Shown here one piece after another: positions 1,301-54,475 of a DNA stretch of 64,000 nucleotides. Each line of letters starts with the position of its first letter. The first letter of the stretch is position 1. A model generated the notes under the pieces. The model was not told the origin of the DNA and ran no database searches. It saw only the letters and a list, made by a program, of their open reading frames with translations. The stretch lies in sequence record MK310184; one strand, given 5' to 3'. Both the position numbers and the translations under genes were made by a program. This DNA is from Phage NC-G.

Positions 1301-3556
1301 ATGATTAACAAATTGGAACTTAGTGAGTTACCATTTGTTGACGGCGTACCTGATGCTCCTCAAAAGCGTATCCAATGGATACGCGAGGGTGATTGTATGT
1401 CTGCAGCAAAAACAAAATACGGCAATGAAGGTAATTTGAACGCTGCTGCTTTAGGAGTTCAGAAAAACGTAGAAGCTCTTGATGCCAACGATTTAAAAAC
1501 TGCTGATAAAGTTAATGAGCTTATAGAAAACGTTAATAATATCAATGACGCTTTAGAAATGTCAACAGATATTTCTATCATTCAACAAATAGAGAAAAAC
1601 CGTGTTGATATTGTAGACCTTAAAAAAGTCACCGAAGATACAACAGAAAAATTGGACACCTTAACAACCAATTTTGATTTCTTGCGTGAAGATGTTGGAT
1701 ATCATGACCCTTTACAAGACGGCCCATATTTAACTGTACGTGAAAATATTGTTCTTCTTAAAAATGAAATTGGTCACTATGAGAACCAGGATATAAACGG
1801 TAATCCTTTACCTCCGGGTGAAACTAGTGAAGCCACTGGTATAAAACGCCGCATCATGGATAATACCACTGAATTGGTGGACCATCGTCTTCGTATTGAT
1901 ACCCTTGAAAGAAACTATGAAGATTCTGATGTTGGGCAATTAGGTATTAAACTAAATGAAATTCGTGCCGAATTAGGACCACATTCTGATACGGTAGGTA
2001 AACAACCTGCATATACCCGAATTTCAGTATTAGAAACGGCTGCAGTTAATTTTAATACGGCTATTGACGAAATTAAGGATAATATTGATTTCTCTGGTAT
2101 GCCTATAAAGGACCGAGTAACTACTTTAGAAAGCAAAACCCTTACCTTAGAAAATTCAGTTAACGTTGATTTAAAACCTAGAGTAACTTCTATAGAAACT
2201 CAAATCGGTTCTGAGTCTGCACCAGCATCTATTAATGGTCGTTTAAGCGGGCTTCGTACTGATGTAAATGATTTAAAAACCGTTGTTGGTAATAGTTCTA
2301 GTGAAGGGCTTCGTTTCCAGGTTTCCGATATTAATCGACGCCTTGGTAGTGAAGTGTCTCCTGCTGCCGGCACGATTAATAAGCGTTTGAATGATGTTAT
2401 TATTCAAGCAAACCAATCCACCTCGTCCATCCAGGATATTCAGGTAGAAATTGGTAACAACCAATCCGGTATAAAAGGTACTTTGCTTAAGCTCACAAAT
2501 AAGGTTGACGGGACGAACCCTAACGGAGCTACTGTAGAAGAACGTGGTCTTATTAATGCGGTTACTTCTTTAGAAACCCAGATGCAAGGTAAATTAGGTG
2601 ACGCACCTTCTGATGGTAAACTCTATGCACGTCGAAATGCGGCATGGGCTGAAGTTGTTAATAATTCCACAGAAATAGAAACTGTTAAAGCCGATTTGGT
2701 TGTTACCAATGGTAAAGTGACCGCTTTAACTTCCAGAGTAGATGATAATGATACTTCTATTTCATCTCTTAATACTCACACCACTGCTCTAAATACTTCG
2801 GTTGGTGAGATTAAAGCCGATATAGTTACTATAAAGGCTAAAGATGTTGAACAGGACGGTCGTTTAACTTCTTTGGAAGAGGCTGATGTTGCTATTAACG
2901 GTAAAATTGCTGCTCTCGAAACTAAGACAGATACCACTGATGATGATGTCACAGCACTGGCTTTAGACGTTTCTTCTTTAGAGAACCAATTGACTCCTAT
3001 AAAAGCCGATATTACCAAAAACAAAGGTGATATTGTTGCCTTAACTGGTCGGGTGGCTTCTACTGAAGGTGAAATTACCGCAATTAAAGTTGATACAGCC
3101 AAAATTGCTCCTTTAACAACTAGAGTTACTACAGCAGAAGGTAAAATCACTACTTTAGAAACAGGGCTTGCCGCTGTTAAAGTCGAATCTGATAAGGTAG
3201 CAGGTATTAATACCCGCCTTGGCACTGCAGAAGATGACATCGGAACACTTGAAACGGGTTTAGCTGCTGTTAAAGTCGAATCCGATAAGGTAGCAGGTAT
3301 TAATACCCGTTTAGGTACGGTCGAAGGTAAAGTTGGTACTCTTGAAACAGGTTTGGCTGCTGTTAAAGTTGAATCTGATAAAGTTGCTGACTTAGGAACC
3401 CGTTTAACCGCCGCCGAAGGTAAAATTACAGCCTTAGAAACAGAATTATCTAAACGTCCACCGGTGGCTCCTGCCGCAGACGGACTTCCGTATGTTCTGG
3501 TTGATAATGCATGGGTATTATTATCTGATTTTGTGACTTTAAACTCAGCACCATAA
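1301..3556 (+). CDS. wac: Fibritin (whisker antigen control, neck whiskers), 751 aa, extended coiled coil with C-terminal foldon-like tail
   Basis: Heptad-rich coiled-coil segments throughout; C-terminus ...DGLPYVLVDNAWVLLSDF resembles the T4 fibritin foldon; position between 12 and 13. Confidence 0.9.
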   Translation: MINKLELSELPFVDGVPDAPQKRIQWIREGDCMSAAKTKYGNEGNLNAAALGVQKNVEALDANDLKTADKVNELIENVNNINDALEMSTDISIIQQIEKNRVDIVDLKKVTEDTTEKLDTLTTNFDFLREDVGYHDPLQDGPYLTVRENIVLLKNEIGHYENQDINGNPLPPGETSEATGIKRRIMDNTTELVDHRLRIDTLERNYEDSDVGQLGIKLNEIRAELGPHSDTVGKQPAYTRISVLETAAVNFNTAIDEIKDNIDFSGMPIKDRVTTLESKTLTLENSVNVDLKPRVTSIETQIGSESAPASINGRLSGLRTDVNDLKTVVGNSSSEGLRFQVSDINRRLGSEVSPAAGTINKRLNDVIIQANQSTSSIQDIQVEIGNNQSGIKGTLLKLTNKVDGTNPNGATVEERGLINAVTSLETQMQGKLGDAPSDGKLYARRNAAWAEVVNNSTEIETVKADLVVTNGKVTALTSRVDDNDTSISSLNTHTTALNTSVGEIKADIVTIKAKDVEQDGRLTSLEEADVAINGKIAALETKTDTTDDDVTALALDVSSLENQLTPIKADITKNKGDIVALTGRVASTEGEITAIKVDTAKIAPLTTRVTTAEGKITTLETGLAAVKVESDKVAGINTRLGTAEDDIGTLETGLAAVKVESDKVAGINTRLGTVEGKVGTLETGLAAVKVESDKVADLGTRLTAAEGKITALETELSKRPPVAPAADGLPYVLVDNAWVLLSDFVTLNSAP
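3151..3429 (+). repeat. Three near-perfect tandem 93-bp (31-codon) repeats inside wac coding sequence
   Basis: Protein segment TLETGLAAVKVESDKVAGINTRLGT... occurs three times in register; DNA units begin at about 3151, 3244 and 3337. Confidence 0.85.
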
Positions 3557-3557
3557 T

Positions 3558-3579
3558 AAAAGGGCTTCGGCCCTTTTTT
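3558..3579 (+). terminator. Rho-independent terminator after wac (GGGC-UUCG-GCCC hairpin plus T6)
   Basis: aaagggcttcggcccttttttg directly after the wac stop codon. Confidence 0.8.
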
Positions 3580-3581
3580 GC

Positions 3582-3589
3582 TATAAATA
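3582..3589 (+). promoter_or_regulatory. T4-type late promoter TATAAATA upstream of gene 13
   Basis: Exact TATAAATA about 22 nt upstream of the gene 13 ATG. Confidence 0.7.
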
Positions 3590-3610
3590 CGGTTATTAGA
3601 GGAATAAAAC

Positions 3611-4546
3611 ATGGCAAGTGAATCATATAACCCTAAGCAACTCAAGGACGCTATTCTGCGCCGCCTGGGTGCACCGATTACAAATATTGAAGTAACTACT
3701 GACCAAGTGTATGATTGTATCCAGAGGGCCTTAGAGCTCTACGGTGAATACCATTATAACGGGTATAACAAAGGTTATCAGGCTTTTTATATTGGCCATG
3801 ACGATGAAGAAAAATTCCGTAATGGTGTATTCGACCTTAAAGGACGTAATATATTTGCAGTAACACAAATTTTGAGAACTAACGTTGGTTCTTTAACATC
3901 TATGGACGGGCAAGCAACTTATCCGTGGTTTACAGATTTTGTACTAGGTTTGGCAGGTATTAATGGCGGTCTTGGGTCTTCATGTAACAGTTTTGGACCT
4001 AATGCCTTCGGCGCCGACCTTGGTTATTTTACACAATTAATGCAATATCGTTCTATGATGCAGGACCTTTTGGTTCCGCTGCCTGATTATTGGTATAATG
4101 ATGCCACTGAACAATTAAAGGTAATGGGCAACTTTGTTAAAGGCGACTTTATTGTAATTGAAGTTTATACCCGTTCATTTAATGGCGTTGATTCCATGGT
4201 TGGGAATACAGCAGGATATGGATACGCTTCTGGCGGCTGTGACGAAAATGAATGGAGCCCTGGGGCTATTTGGGACAATCCTGCACGTCGAATTTCCGGA
4301 ATGAGAGCTGGCGAAGACCTTGGACTACAAGATGGTGCTTATAATAACCGTTGGGTCAAAGATTACGCTACGGCATTAGTTAAAGAGGTCAATGGTAATA
4401 TTTTAGCCAAACACCAAGGTATGCAATTAGCAGGCGGGACCACTGTAGACGGCATTCGATTGATTGAAGAAGCTCGTTTAGAAAAAGAACGTCTTCGCGA
4501 AGAATTAGATTTGCTCGACCCACCAACACCTATTTTAATTGGATAA
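3611..4546 (+). CDS. 13: Neck protein gp13
   Basis: 311-aa ORF, size and position match T4 gp13; preceded by late promoter; tightly followed by gene 14. Confidence 0.85.
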
Positions 4547-11281: not shown

Positions 11282-12856
11282 ATGGCAAACTTTAATACAA
11301 TATTAAGTTTTCTTAAGCCATGGGCTAATGAAGACGAAAAAGAATATAAACAACAATTAAATAACAATTTAGAGTCTGTCACTGCACCTAAGCTTGATGA
11401 TGGCGCTCGCGAAATTGAAACCCAAGAGCAAAATATCCCTTATAACGCTCTTATGCAACAAATGTTTGGTAGTAATGAGCCTGAAGTTAAAAACACCAGG
11501 GAACTCATTGATACCTACCGTAATTTGATGAACAACTATGAAGTCGATAACGCAGTTCAAGAAATTGTGTCTGACGCTATTGTCTACGAGGATGATAAAG
11601 AAGTAGTTGCATTAAATTTAGACGGGACTGATTTCAGCCAAGCAATTAAAGATAAAATTTTGGCCGAATTTAGTGAAGTTTTAAACCTTTTAAATTTCCA
11701 ACGTAAAGGCACTGACCATTTCCAACGTTGGTATGTAGACTCAAGAATATTCTTTCATAAAATTATAAACCCTAAAAAAATGAAAGATGGTATACAAGAG
11801 CTCCGTCGTTTAGACCCTCGCCAACTCCAATATATCCGTGAAATTGTTACACGTATGGAAGACGGTGTTAAAATTGTAGATGGATACCGCGAGTTTTTCG
11901 TTTACGATACTGGTCATGAAAGTTATTGTGCTGATGGACGCATTTATTCAGCTGGGACTAAAGTTAAAATTCCTCGTGCTGCTGTAGTTTATGCACATTC
12001 TGGGTTATTGGATTGTTGTGGTAAAAACATCATTGGCTATTTGCAACGTGCTATTAAGCCTGCAAACCAGCTTAAATTGATGGAAGATGCAATGGTCATC
12101 TATCGTATTACCCGTGCTCCCGACCGTCGTGTATTTTATATCGATACAGGAAATATGCCTTCTCGTAAGGCTGCGGCACAAATGCAACATATCATGAACA
12201 CGATGAAAAACCGTGTGGTATATGATGCTTCGACCGGTAAAATTAAAAACCAGCAACATAATATGTCGATGACTGAAGACTATTGGTTGCAACGTCGAGA
12301 CGGTAAAGCGGTAACAGAAGTTGATACCATGCCTGGTGCCACAGGTATGAGTGATATGGATGACGTTCTTTATTTCCGCACAGCACTTTACCGTGCATTG
12401 CGTATTCCAGAGTCACGTATCCCTAGTGAATCTAATTCCGGTGTTATGTTTGATGCTGGTACGGCTATAACTCGTGATGAGTTGAAATTTGCCAAATGGA
12501 TTCGCCAGCTCCAAAATAAATTCGAAGAAATTTTCTTAGACCCATTAAAAACAAACCTCATTCTTAAAAAGATTATTACAGAAGATGAGTGGGAAAGAGA
12601 AATAAATAATATTAAAGTTACGTTCAACCGTGATAGCTACTTCAGTGAAATGAAAGATGCGGAAATCATGGAACGCAGAATCAATATGCTAACGATGGCT
12701 GAACCATTTATTGGTAAGTATATTTCACATCAAACGGCTATGAAAGATTTCCTTCAGATGACTGACGAAGAAATTAATCAAGAAGCTAAGCAAATTGAAG
12801 AAGAGTCTAAAGAGGCTCGTTTCCAAAACCCAGATGAAGAAGAAGAGGATTTCTAA
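11282..12856 (+). CDS. 20: Portal vertex protein gp20
   Basis: 524 aa, identical length to T4 gp20; acidic C-terminus; upstream of prohead core genes. Confidence 0.95.
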
Positions 12857-13128
12857 TGGAAGATTTAATCGAAGCTATTAAATCAAACGACCTCGTAGCA
12901 GTTCGTAAAGCAGCAGCCCCGCTTATCGAATCTCGAGTAGCCGCTTTGATTGAAGCCCGTAAAGCAGAAATTGCTCGCTCCGTTATGATTGAAGGCGAAG
13001 AAGCCGACGAAGATGACGAAGACGAAGATAAAGACGAAAAATCCGATAAAGCAGATAAGAAAGACAAAAAAGAATCTGACGATGCGGATGAAGGTGATGA
13101 TGGTGATGACGACGAGGACGATGAATAA
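12856..13128 (+). CDS. 67: Prohead core protein gp67 (highly acidic C-terminus)
   Basis: 90-aa ORF with poly-D/E tail, translationally coupled between 20 and 68. Confidence 0.85.
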
Positions 13129-14221: not shown

Positions 14222-15037
14222 ATGCTTAAAGAACAACTGATCGCTGAAGCACAGAATATTGATGCTTCCGTTGCTCTTGACAGTATTTTCGAATCAGTTA
14301 ATATTTCTCCGGAAGCAAAAGAAACTTTCGGCACTGTATTCGAAGCTACCGTCAAGCAACACGCCGTTAAACTGGCTGAATCTCATATCGCTAAAATCGC
14401 TGAAAAAGCGGAAGAAGAAGTTGAGAAAAATAAAGAAGAAGCTGAAGAAAAAGCTGATAAGAAAATCCAAGAAGCTGCTGGTCGTTTCCTTGACCACGTT
14501 GCTAAAGAATGGATGGCTGAAAACCAGCTGGCTGTTGATAAAGGTATTAAAGCCGAACTGTTCGAATCCATGTTGATGGGTATGAAAGAACTGTTTGTTG
14601 AACACAATGTGGTTGTTCCAGAAGAAGCAGTAGACGTTGTTGCTGAAATGGAAGAAGAACTCCAAGAGCAGAAAGATGAAACCGCTCGTCTGTTCGAAGA
14701 AGTTGGTAAGCGCGATGCGTATATTAATTACGTACAGCGTGAAGTTGCGTTGACTGAAGCAACTAAAGACCTGACCGAATCTCAAAAAGAAAAAGTTAGT
14801 TCTCTGGTAGAAGGCATGGATTATTCCGATGCATTTGGTAAAAAAATTGGCGCTATCGTTGAAATGGTTAAAGGCCAGACTGACGTTGAAAAACCAATCA
14901 CCGAAGCCGCTATAAATAAAACTGAAGACGATGCTGCAGCACTGAATTATATTTCGGAAGCAGTTGAAGAAAAAGGCACTAAGCCTACCCTGTCCTTCGC
15001 GGACCTGTCTGCAATCGCAGCATCTCGAATTTCTTAA
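14222..15037 (+). CDS. 22: Prohead core scaffold protein gp22
   Basis: 271 aa, strongly acidic and alpha-helical (E/K-rich), size as T4 gp22 (269 aa). Confidence 0.92.
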   Translation: MLKEQLIAEAQNIDASVALDSIFESVNISPEAKETFGTVFEATVKQHAVKLAESHIAKIAEKAEEEVEKNKEEAEEKADKKIQEAAGRFLDHVAKEWMAENQLAVDKGIKAELFESMLMGMKELFVEHNVVVPEEAVDVVAEMEEELQEQKDETARLFEEVGKRDAYINYVQREVALTEATKDLTESQKEKVSSLVEGMDYSDAFGKKIGAIVEMVKGQTDVEKPITEAAINKTEDDAAALNYISEAVEEKGTKPTLSFADLSAIAASRIS

Positions 15038-52219: not shown

Positions 52220-54475
52220 TTAAAGCTTACAAGCTGCGCAATCATCGGCTTTAGGAGTTTCGATTTCATAATCGTCGGTACCGGAGCCATCACGGGTGTT
52301 ATGATAGTAAAGGTTCTTACCACCAAAGTACCAGAAATATAACAGGTCATCAAGCATTACTGACATAGGAACTTTTCCTTTCTCATAATTCTGAGGGTCG
52401 TAATACGTATTTGCTGATGCTGATTGGCAAACCCATTTCAACATAATTGCTACTTGGGTAAGATAAGGTTTATTACCTTTCTTAGCGAGGCTCCAAGCGT
52501 AATCATACAACCCTTGGTTATGTTCTACATTAGGAACTACCTGACGGAAGTTACCTTCTTTAGATTCTTTAATACTTACTGGCCCACGCGGAGGTTCGAT
52601 ACCGTTGGTAGAGTTGGAAACTTGGCTGCTTGACTCGCATGGCATAAGTGCTGATAATGTGCTATTACGGATGCCATATTTAGCCATGTCTTCCCGCAAC
52701 GACGTCCAGTCACAAACATAGTTAGGGGCTGCGATTTGGTCAATCTTTTTATTGTACCAGTCGATAGGAAGCTCGCCTCGAGACCATTTAGTGTCTGAAT
52801 AATACTCGCAAGGTCCTTTTTCTTCGGCCAATTTGATTGATGCTCGGATAAGTCCATATTGTAATCTCTCAAACAGTTCATGAGTTAAATCGTTAGCGTC
52901 TTCATAAGAAGCAAAGTTGCTTGCCAACCAAGCGGCGTAGTTTGTAACACCGACACCCAGGTTACGGCGCTTCTTAGCCTTCAGAGCTTCAGGAACAGGA
53001 TAGCTTTGATAATCTAATAGATTATCCAATGCACGTACTTGTACTTCAGCCAGCTCATTGATTTTGTCTTGGTCCTGCCAATCAAAGTTATCTAACACGA
53101 ATGCAGACAACGTGCACAACCCGATTTCAGCGTCCGGACTATTCACATCAGTAGTCGGGATAGCAATTTCACAACACAAGTTGCTCTGGCGAATAGGGGC
53201 CTTTTCACGAATAAATGGTGTGAAGTTGTTAGTGTTATCAACGAACTGAGGATAAATTCGTGCAGTGCCTGAACGTTCGGTCATGAACAATTCGAAGAGG
53301 TCACGTGCTTTAATACGTTTCTTACGAATACTAGGGTCTTTTTCAGCTGCTTCATACAATTCACGGAAACGGTCTTGGTCTTCAAAATAAGAATAATAAA
53401 GCTCACCACCCATTTCATGAGGACTAAACAGGGTAATATAATCATTCTTACCGAAACGTTCCATCATCAGGTCGTTCAACTGGATTCCGTAGTCCATATG
53501 ACGAATACGGTTCTCATCGACACCTTTGTTGTTTTTCAGAACGAGCAGATTTTCAACTTCCAAATGCCAAATAGGATAATAAGCAGTAGCAGCGCCGCCA
53601 CGGATTCCACCTTGTGAACATGATTTAACAGCAGTCTGGAAATGTTTCCAGAATGGAATAACACCGGTGTGTTTGACTTCGCCCATGCCAATACGAGAAC
53701 CTTCGGCACGAATCATACCAACGTTAATACCAATACCTGCACGTTTAGAAATGTATTCAATTATTGAGTTCGCAGTTTTGTTAATAGATTTCAGCGAGTC
53801 GCCTGCTTCAATAACCACACAAGAACTAAATTGGCGGGTTGGTGTACGTGCTCCGGCCATAATAGGAGTAGGCAACGAAACCTGACGAGTACTTACAGCA
53901 TCATAAAAACGAATAATATGTGCTAAACGGTTACCTGGCTCGTCTTGGTGTAGGGCCATACCAATACACATGATAGCAAACTGAGGAGTTTCGTAGATTT
54001 TACCGGTTGTTTTATCTTTAACCAAATATTTCTCTTTCAACTGCATCGCACCAGCATAGGTCAATTCGAAATCACGCTCATGCTTGATATGAGATTCTAA
54101 GAAAGTAATTTCTTCCGCAGAATATCGAGACAGCAATTCAGGGTCATATTTACCTTCATTAACACAATAGGAAATATGGTCGATAAAACTACGTGGTTCG
54201 AACTGCCCATAAACTTCTTTACGCAGTGCAAACATCAATTCTTTTGCAGCTACATACTGGTAATCAGGTTCTTCAACCGAAATAAGGTTGGCTGCTACCT
54301 TAACAGTCAGATTCTGGATATCTTTGGTAGTCATACCATCACGAAGATGGGGTTTAATTTCTTCGTATAATTCGTATGGATCGATTTGGGTTCCTTTACA
54401 ACCCCAAGTCAGAACTTTAATAATTTTTTGTGCGTCAAAATCTTGGGATACACCACTACTTTTTTGTACTTGCAT
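52220..54475 (-). CDS. nrdA: Ribonucleotide reductase large subunit
   Basis: 751 aa; N-terminal ATP-cone, catalytic Cys motifs, C-terminal CAAC-like tail (DDCAACKL). Confidence 0.96.
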   Translation of the reverse strand: MQVQKSSGVSQDFDAQKIIKVLTWGCKGTQIDPYELYEEIKPHLRDGMTTKDIQNLTVKVAANLISVEEPDYQYVAAKELMFALRKEVYGQFEPRSFIDHISYCVNEGKYDPELLSRYSAEEITFLESHIKHERDFELTYAGAMQLKEKYLVKDKTTGKIYETPQFAIMCIGMALHQDEPGNRLAHIIRFYDAVSTRQVSLPTPIMAGARTPTRQFSSCVVIEAGDSLKSINKTANSIIEYISKRAGIGINVGMIRAEGSRIGMGEVKHTGVIPFWKHFQTAVKSCSQGGIRGGAATAYYPIWHLEVENLLVLKNNKGVDENRIRHMDYGIQLNDLMMERFGKNDYITLFSPHEMGGELYYSYFEDQDRFRELYEAAEKDPSIRKKRIKARDLFELFMTERSGTARIYPQFVDNTNNFTPFIREKAPIRQSNLCCEIAIPTTDVNSPDAEIGLCTLSAFVLDNFDWQDQDKINELAEVQVRALDNLLDYQSYPVPEALKAKKRRNLGVGVTNYAAWLASNFASYEDANDLTHELFERLQYGLIRASIKLAEEKGPCEYYSDTKWSRGELPIDWYNKKIDQIAAPNYVCDWTSLREDMAKYGIRNSTLSALMPCESSSQVSNSTNGIEPPRGPVSIKESKEGNFRQVVPNVEHNQGLYDYAWSLAKKGNKPYLTQVAIMLKWVCQSASANTYYDPQNYEKGKVPMSVMLDDLLYFWYFGGKNLYYHNTRDGSGTDDYEIETPKADDCAACKL

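Follow-up and report, generated by a model that had tools for sequence, protein, structure and literature searches.

[quoted passage not shown]

The wac locus

The window analysed is a 64,000-nt stretch of Phage NC-G DNA (sequence record MK310184), near the start of which lies wac, the gene for the fibritin that forms the neck whisker or collar fibre. The features of the gene and its immediate 3' flank are listed here.

1301..3556, + strand: wac (fibritin, neck whisker/collar fibre), JS98-type with two foldon-like motifs; 751 aa plus stop, from the ORF translation
1313..2584, + strand: N-terminal attachment domain and segmented coiled-coil rod; residues 5-428, collinear with T4 fibritin 4-430
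2600..2656, + strand: internal foldon-like motif DAPSDGKLYARRNAAWAEV, residues 434-452; corresponds in position to the C-terminal foldon found in single-foldon fibritins
2663..3058, + strand: first spacer segment (residues 455-586), a coiled coil with a single unbroken heptad register; from the heptad count and AF2
3059..3151, + strand: degenerate 'unit 0', STEGEITAIKVDTAKIAPLTTRVTTAEGKIT, residues 587-617; a fourth, diverged 31-residue period
3152..3244, + strand: repeat unit 1, type A, TLETGLAAVKVESDKVAGINTRLGTAEDDIG, residues 618-648; from the repeat search and unit alignment
3245..3337, + strand: repeat unit 2, type Y, ...GTVEGKVG, residues 649-679; groups with the penultimate units of JS10, UP19, Ec2-ASingh and Esco_B-01
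3338..3430, + strand: repeat unit 3, type Z (terminal), ...VADLGTRLTAAEGKIT, residues 680-710; groups as a last unit
3431..3553, + strand: last heptads, Pro-rich linker and terminal foldon APAADGLPYVLVDNAWVLLSDFV (residues 723-745, nt 3467-3535); from blastp and AF2
3558..3579, + strand: hairpin (stem GGGC, loop TTCG, stem GCCC) between an A-run and a T-run; read from the sequence

An initial sequence-only reading had named the gene wac, and this identity is borne out by Pfam Fibritin_C (PF07921; E 8.7e-29, 100 bits against a cut-off of 21), by PHROG 1056 'fibritin neck whisker' (E 5e-195) and by collinearity with T4 fibritin, of which chains 2bsg_A and 3j2o_A match residues 5-428 in a phmmer search of the PDB (E about 5e-73). 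The roughly 50-aa conserved N-terminal domain for neck attachment is present (residues 6-68 match 1ox3 and 2ibl, E 1.4e-13), and the Fibritin_C match stops at residue 454. The closest relative in the phage collection searched is JS98, a Dhakavirus, with 97.6% identity to the wac DNA and a whisker protein that is 98% identical to the NC-G product. As in T4-type phages (Straboviridae), the gene lies between gene 12 and gene 13: the upstream ORF (131-1291) belongs to PHROG 910, tail collar/short fibre, the downstream ORF (3611-4546) to PHROG 211, head-tail adaptor, and the JS98 annotation gives the order gp12 - wac - gp13 - gp14. An antisense ORF over the repeats (2776-3645, 289 aa, TTG start) had no PHROG match and was taken as spurious.

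Straight after the double TAA stop of wac comes the hairpin at 3558-3579, which probably acts as an intrinsic terminator or stabilises the RNA of the gene. With just 4 pairs in its G-C stem, it was passed over by a consensus terminator scan.

Two foldon-like motifs and the spacer between them

At 751 aa, the length given by ORF 1301-3556, the product is indeed much longer than the 487 aa given at first for T4 fibritin, whose chains in the PDB have 486-487 aa. The fibritin foldon has found wide use as a trimerisation tag, and the NC-G chain carries two T4-like foldon motifs (residues 434-452 and 723-745), as does the JS98-type fibritin. At the internal motif, pairwise blastp placed the best matches of the C-termini of two single-foldon fibritins (P0028, E 3e-12; P0041, E 2e-8) and a match of the T4-type foldon (E 5e-5), and AF2 folds the segment into a beta-hairpin (441-445/448-452). 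The terminal foldon matches the T4-type foldon region at 33% over 57 aa (blastp, E 1.5e-6), is given a hairpin by AF2 at 731-734/737-740, and has a core (D, G, Y, V, W, V, L, L, S, F) that is invariant across 16 homologues. The spacer between the two motifs has a coiled-coil pattern and varies in length among relatives, another property of the JS98 type.

Heptads were assigned by a simple count of hydrophobic positions, not by a calibrated predictor. By this count, all 21-residue windows with starts at residues 443-592 share one register, with an a/d occupancy score of up to 0.93, and AF2 builds a helix across 456-588. This first part of the spacer (455-586) is missing in the 514-529 aa fibritins of the Dhakavirus phages Bp7, KIT01, MN04, C6 and 04086. 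Past window start 592, the register moves by +3 per 31 residues (3, 6, 2, 5, 1), and the hydrophobic periodicity peaks at 31/9 = 3.44. Each 31-residue unit is made up of four heptads and a register shift of 3 residues, and unit 0 shows the same +3 shift as units 1-3. In the AF2 monomer (pTM 0.29, with a low-confidence break at 587-599) the repeats are wholly helical, with pLDDT of about 80-88, and in the whisker they would form a trimeric coiled coil.

Divergence of the units and variation among relatives

Three tandem in-frame units of 93 nt, or 31 aa, were recovered by TRF (period 93, scores 288 and 245) and by a second repeat search. They lie where the sequence-only reading had put them, at 3151-3429, except that the codon register is 3152-3430, one base off. 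The repeat is far above chance: at an offset of 93, the best 93-nt window of wac has 76/93 identical positions, whereas 1000 shufflings of its codons give 39.9 +/- 2.3 (maximum 50). The units supply 93 of the 264 residues beyond T4, which agrees with the view that they make up part of the extra length. As protein they are 74-87% identical (27/31, 23/31 and 23/31). Unit 0 shares 12-16/31 residues and 52-61% of nucleotides with them, and a related 24-aa form of it occurs as a tandem of three in L026, the one informative new lineage from a scan of viral contigs that mostly returned the same isolate genomes again.

The units had also been described as near-identical at the DNA level, which they are not. 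In pairwise comparison, 76%, 67% and 73% of nucleotides are identical, corresponding to 22-31 differing positions of 93 and to 8-12 synonymous codon differences per pair, with Nei-Gojobori dS of 0.88-1.28 and dN/dS of 0.12-0.24. Close likeness is confined to the middle 45 nt of units 1 and 2 (43/45 identical, longest exact run 26 nt); the edges of the same two units are identical at only 28/48 positions.

The differences between the units also bear on the correctness of the array. Misassembly classically arises at tandem repeats, and three copies could in principle have arisen from collapsed or expanded repeats. Units that differ at 22-31 of 93 positions, however, allow reads to be placed uniquely, neither the reading frame nor the terminal foldon is disrupted, and JS98, which was sequenced independently, has a 2256-nt wac of the same length and architecture. 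The neck whiskers protein deposited for Phage NC-G is likewise 751 aa long and 100% identical, though probably from the same assembly; an exact-protein look-up found no other assembly on record with an identical wac protein. We consider an assembly artefact barely credible.

The synonymous divergence speaks to the age of the array. In their N-terminal parts, NC-G wac and other alignable Dhakavirus wac genes differ by a dS of 0.05-0.65, so that the units (0.9-1.3) are further from one another than NC-G is from the most distant of these genes (about 0.65), and the recent slipped-strand or unequal-crossover expansion first proposed is contradicted. A slippage-prone locus of the contingency type would have units near-identical in DNA, which at 67-76% identity and dS of 0.88-1.28 these are not. 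The idea that one 93-nt unit was recently expanded in the NC-G lineage, making the locus hypervariable in the contingency sense, accommodates the tandem, in-register arrangement, the 74-87% protein identity, the 26-nt run and 43/45 core shared by units 1 and 2, and the differing copy numbers of relatives. It is largely refuted by the synonymous divergence, which is near saturation, and it sits poorly with two further observations: each unit has an orthologue at the matching array position in other phages, and JS98 has an equal number of units with a different middle cassette, rather than one more or one fewer. We therefore regard recent expansion as very unlikely.

Copy number had been expected to differ among relatives, and it does: across the sampled Dhakavirus and related fibritins, wac encodes 514-827 aa with 0 to about 5.5 units. 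Bp7, KIT01 and MN04 have zero units, PSD2002 has Z, MX01 has Y-Z, NC-G has A-Y-Z, JS98 has A-B-Z, and JS10 has A-B'-Y-Z with a B' of 48 aa. The unit types A, B, Y and Z group by array position across phages, some of these assignments being based on just 93 nt, and the position-matched orthologues of each NC-G unit fall within about 12% average-linkage DNA distance. Unit 1 groups with the first unit of JS98, EcWhh-1, JS10 and EcoM_005, and 11 of 13 sampled arrays end in type Z, the exceptions being VR5, with a diverged last unit, and EcoM_005, with a 48-aa hybrid. Since each unit has position-matched orthologues elsewhere, the array is older than the split of these phages.

NC-G and JS98 are 78.5% identical at the position of unit 2, where JS98 has another cassette, and 98.5% identical across the rest of wac. 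Five relatives with 97-98.6% identical flanks have spacers that are 78-98% identical and carry four different arrays, none of which is that of NC-G. Linked core variants are common to A-type and Y-type units of different phages, and the indels seen among relatives measure 7, 14, 17, 24, 31 and 48 residues. These patterns suggest variation by recombination of modules. The suspicion of a hypervariable locus was thus right as to variability among relatives and wrong as to its source, which would be recombination and cassette exchange without repeat slippage.

A proposal for the modules and comparison with known systems

Taken together, our analysis favours, with a probability of roughly 80%, a reading of the repeats as coiled-coil length modules in the spacer of a two-foldon fibritin that are old, constrained at the protein level and varied by recombination or cassette import. 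On this proposal, the three 93-nt repeats would encode three 31-residue fibritin coiled-coil modules between two foldon-like hairpins, one at the point where T4 fibritin ends and the other at the real C-terminus. The usual helix rise is about 0.15 nm per residue, and each module would on that basis lengthen the distal whisker by roughly 4.5 nm. The modules would be ancient paralogues whose protein likeness has been kept by purifying selection, with local homogenisation between units 1 and 2 across their 45-nt core. Phages may have come to differ through homologous or unequal recombination between modules and also through the import of whole spacer alleles from co-infecting relatives; old cassettes would have been reassorted, deleted and imported, rather than identical repeats slipping. 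Only in-frame products with a plausible coiled-coil pattern would have survived.

T4 fibritin helps to attach the long tail fibres and keeps them retracted in unfavourable conditions. The tie of the whisker to environmental sensing would by analogy with T4 extend to NC-G, and the modules may affect tail-fibre handling. No correlation was seen between whisker length and the size of the block of long-tail-fibre proximal/hinge genes 34-36 (rho -0.22, p 0.40, n 17, kinship ignored), which argues against a simple length-matching to the tail-fibre knee.

This independence of spacer variation from the gene 34-36 block is also what one might expect if the distal spacer and second foldon were a functionally separate appendage, either a second tail-fibre contact or a probe of surface or environment, with its reach under diversifying selection and its module number adaptive, not neutral. 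The internal foldon-like motif lies at a fixed distance from the N-terminus, where the fibre-binding foldon of T4 lies, and only the part past it varies, by 0 to about 300 aa; the units are under strong purifying selection (dN/dS 0.12-0.24), and flanks that are 97-99% identical yet enclose a spacer only 78% identical point to allele import. However, isolates whose fibritin nearly lacks a spacer (529 aa) are viable, which makes the extension dispensable, mosaicism by itself is no proof of selection, and the correlation test was small (n = 17) and ignored kinship. We find a separate appendage doubtful. It is similarly a long shot that such an appendage evolves separately, its reach tuned by the exchange of coiled-coil cassettes in steps of about 1-7 nm (7-48 residues) while the internal hairpin keeps a T4-like fibre contact, and with a module number that is adaptive, for example for fibre deployment or for particle behaviour across environments.

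The preferred reading, of old length modules, places the NC-G protein among fibritins that are already described. The gene is annotated, both its two-foldon build and its variable spacer have been published, and the repeats are real but ordinary. The spacer weakly matches trimeric coiled-coil fibres (PDB 4lin, E 2e-5; 6gap, E 0.0095; PHROG 1219 tail needle, E 2e-8); these matches, to the P22 tail needle gp26 and reovirus sigma-1, are driven by composition and heptads and give no sign of common descent or shared function.

T4 fibritin itself (gpwac, 487 aa; PDB 2bsg, 1aa0 and 1ox3) shares with the NC-G protein the N-terminal domain, the segmented rod, the foldon hairpin and the gene context. 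It has a single foldon, at which it ends, whereas the NC-G chain runs on for about 300 residues, with 132 residues of continuous coiled coil, four periods of 31 residues and a second foldon. JS98C3 gpwac was reportedly treated by Latypov et al. in 2007.

The nearest counterpart is the JS98-type fibritin, which has two foldons and a coiled-coil spacer of variable length (Letarov & Krisch 2013, PMC3797505) and which in JS98 trimerises and folds through its foldon motifs (PMC3797505). NC-G shares with it the gene, its position, the conserved N-terminal domain, the T4-like rod, the two foldon-like motifs and the variable spacer, and differs from JS98 in its middle cassette, which is type Y instead of type B. 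Our searches for literature on Dhakavirus and fibritin and on Phage NC-G found nothing past that paper, in which the word 'repeat' is absent, and no published account of 31-residue units, of 7-, 14- and 17-residue sub-modules or of positional cassette types. What is added here is the anatomy of the unit, four heptads plus 3 residues, and variation by the reassortment of old cassettes, neither of which was found in the literature searched. Furthermore, the whiskers of close relatives, with 0 to about 5.5 modules, provide a ready-made length series for testing the effect of length and of the second foldon on fibre handling.

The wac gene and its foldon motifs

The window comes from a coliphage of the T4 type that resembles JS98 (genus Dhakavirus, Straboviridae). 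The sequence-only reading correctly assigned wac, the fibritin (neck whisker) gene, with 751 aa against 487 aa in T4. Its product shows 100% identity to the database entry 'neck whiskers protein [Phage NC-G]' and matches PHROG 1056 'fibritin neck whisker' (E 5e-195) and Pfam Fibritin_C (E 8.7e-29, with the match ending at residue 454, short of the C-terminus), while its residues 5-428 are collinear with residues 4-430 of T4 fibritin (E 5e-73; chain length 486-487 aa). At the DNA level the gene shares 97.6% identity with its JS98 counterpart, which lies between genes 12 and 13.

Features of wac and its 3' junction
1301-3556 (+): wac ORF, 751 aa
2600-2656 (+): internal foldon-like motif DAPSDGKLYARRNAAWAEV, residues 434-452, about 300 residues before the C-terminus, where single-foldon fibritins end
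3059-3151 (+): unit 0, a degenerate fourth period, residues 587-617, sharing 12-16/31 residues with units 1-3
3152-3244 (+): unit 1, TLETGLAAVKVESDKVAGINTRLGTAEDDIG (codon register)
3245-3337 (+): unit 2, TLETGLAAVKVESDKVAGINTRLGTVEGKVG (codon register)
3338-3430 (+): unit 3, TLETGLAAVKVESDKVADLGTRLTAAEGKIT (codon register)
residues 723-745 (+): terminal foldon-like motif APAADGLPYVLVDNAWVLLSDFV, matching the T4-type foldon region (33% over 57 residues, E 1.5e-6)
within 3554-3592 (+): double stop TAA TAA ending wac, read from the sequence
3558-3579 (+): GGGC-TTCG-GCCC hairpin and T-run, after the wac stops
3582-3589: TATAAATA, an exact match to the T4 late-promoter consensus, about 22 nt before gene 13 begins (3611)

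The internal motif best matches the C-terminal foldons of two single-foldon fibritins, P0028 (E 3e-12) and P0041 (E 2e-8), and aligns with the T4-type foldon at E 5e-5. With two foldon-like motifs, the wac product thus amounts to a whole T4-like fibritin extended by about 270 residues of coiled-coil spacer and by a second foldon. Another ORF (52220-54475, -), also exactly 751 aa long, is probably the ribonucleotide reductase large subunit, judging from its offset to wac and the JS98 annotation (nrdA, 2256 nt); the equal length is a coincidence.

An old, mosaic repeat array

Tandem Repeats Finder reported a period-93 array in wac (scores 288 and 245), and a separate search found three 93-nt copies at 93-nt spacing. 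At offset 93 the best 93-nt self-match of wac is 76/93, against 39.9 +/- 2.3 (maximum 50) in 1000 codon shuffles. The three-unit repeat is real, although its earlier placement at 3151-3429 was one base early. Of the 264 residues by which the protein exceeds T4 fibritin, units 1-3 supply 93. An antisense ORF (2776-3645, -; 289 aa, TTG start) that crosses the repeats and extends over the wac/gene 13 junction gave no match in a PHROG search; the codon composition of a coiled-coil gene probably accounts for it.

The units had been described as nearly identical DNA reflecting recent expansion, and neither point holds. Unit pairs share 27/31, 23/31 and 23/31 residues, with DNA identity of only 76%, 67% and 73%, 8-12 synonymous codon differences per pair, dS of 0.88-1.28 and dN/dS of 0.12-0.24 (Nei-Gojobori). 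Between the window wac and those of ten other Dhakavirus phages and JS98, dS is only 0.05-0.65 (first 442 codons); the duplications therefore happened before these phages diverged, and purifying selection on the protein keeps the units alike. The central core of units 1 and 2 (unit nt 22-66) is 43/45 identical, with a longest exact run of 26 nt, against only 28/48 at the edges, which probably explains the impression of near-identity. Linked core variants are common to first-position and penultimate-position units of different phages. The units are mosaics, which suggests that local gene conversion or recombination has taken place among them.

A scan for hydrophobic a/d positions in 21-residue windows found a single unbroken heptad register for windows starting at 443-592 and, beyond that, a +3 shift per 31-residue period (3 to 6 to 2 to 5 to 1); a unit therefore comprises four heptads and an insertion of 3 residues. 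The hydrophobic periodicity has its maximum at 31/9 = 3.44 residues. In an AlphaFold2 monomer model of residues 425-751 (mean pLDDT 78, pTM 0.29), units 1-3 form one continuous helix (pLDDT about 80-88), with beta-hairpins at 441-445/448-452 and 731-734/737-740 and a low-confidence break at 587-599 that may be an artefact of the monomer folding back.

Sub-modules show up in the partial units: an element of 17 residues in 0, 1 or 2 copies (unit lengths 14, 31 and 48 aa), a duplication of 7 residues (38-aa unit) and a 24-residue version of unit 0. Lengths of 7 and 14 are whole heptads, 17, 24 and 31 are whole heptads plus 3, and the 48-residue unit holds two 3-residue shifts. In a more distant lineage (L026:1501-3660, IMG/VR UViG_2706795394), a 722-aa fibritin only 51% identical has the same two-foldon layout with a different module amplified: the 24-residue unit-0 version, 'ITAIKLDTAKIAPL..RV..AE.E', in three tandem copies; within this spacer, another heptad-plus-3 module has expanded independently.

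Elsewhere in the window, the tandem-repeat table lists short in-frame acidic or Lys/Glu-rich repeats at 12991-13109 and 14387-14457 (for example GAAGAC/GAAGACGAC, GATGAAGGT and GAAAAAGCTGAA), downstream of a portal-sized ORF (11282-12856). Prohead core and scaffold genes occupy the region downstream of the portal in T4-type genomes.

Cassette variation among relatives

We compared wac of 17 Dhakavirus genomes and homologues from the protein database and viral contigs. Units cluster by array position across phages, not by genome, within about 12% average-linkage DNA distance.

wac arrays (A, Y and Z, window units 1, 2 and 3; B, JS98 middle cassette; B', 48-aa unit)
Phage; wac (aa); array
Bp7, KIT01, MN04; 529; none
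C6, 04086; 514; none
PSD2002; 689; Z
MX01, ABTNLsp5; 720; Y-Z
UP19; 734; 14-aa remnant-Y-Z
Window; 751; A-Y-Z
JS98; 751; A-B-Z
EcWhh-1, VR5; 768; A-B'(48 aa)-Z
JS10; 799; A-B'-Y-Z
IME08, IME341; 799; 31-48-31-31
Ec2-ASingh, Esco_B-01; 827; 24-31-38-14-Y-Z

The annotated IME08 start (L017:896-3364, HM071924.1; 822 aa rather than 799 aa) precedes the conserved MIDKLSIKELPF start by 23 codons and overlaps gene 12; it looks like a misannotated start codon.

Within the phage collection JS98 is the closest relative; it is 98.5% identical to the window upstream of the array, 94.6% in unit 1, 78.5% in unit 2 and 98.9% in unit 3, a clean replacement of the middle cassette. Five relatives, JS98, Ec2-ASingh, Esco_B-01, UP19 and EcWhh-1, match the window at 97-98.6% in gene 12, in the N-terminal part of wac and in gene 13, yet at only 78-98% in the spacer upstream of the array, and they carry four different arrays, 0/5 matching the window's. 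The proposed hypervariability is borne out insofar as the locus varies (0 to about 5.5 units, 514-827 aa), not by slippage but most likely through recombination of old cassettes. The five-relative pattern bears the marks of recombination, homologous or unequal, with alleles imported in mixed infection, a plausible process given that T4-type phages are well known to be recombination-proficient. MN04 (L012, MT129654.1), filed under species Dhakavirus JS98, has a gene 34-36 block 95.3% identical to that of JS98 and a short, divergent 529-aa wac allele (N-terminal dS about 0.64 from the window); thus wac alleles move between otherwise close genomes.

The extension and known fibritins

In T4, the collar and whiskers consist of twelve fibritin trimers (PMC12929629). 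T4 fibritin is a 530-Å trimeric fibre whose C-terminal end touches the tail-fibre kneecap; it speeds fibre attachment and participates in fibre retraction (PMC3004832). The Dhakavirus gene 34-36 block measures 5737-5908 nt (spread at most 171 nt, against 313 aa for wac), and its length does not correlate with that of wac (Spearman rho -0.22, p 0.40, n 17, uncorrected for phylogeny), so the variable extension does not simply match the tail fibre in length. The internal foldon-like motif, whose distance from the N-terminus is fixed, may keep the T4-like contact, leaving the distal extension free to vary or with another role. As isolates with almost no spacer are viable, the extension would be dispensable.

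Earlier work has already described the gene, the two-foldon layout and the variable spacer. Letarov & Krisch (2013, PMC3797505, citing Latypov et al. 2007) define JS98-type fibritin by two foldon-like motifs with, between them, a spacer that shows a coiled-coil pattern and 'may vary in length'; they note that one deletion or duplication relates the T4 type to the JS98 type, and report trimerisation of JS98 fibritin via its foldon motifs. To this our analysis adds the unit anatomy and the cassette pattern.
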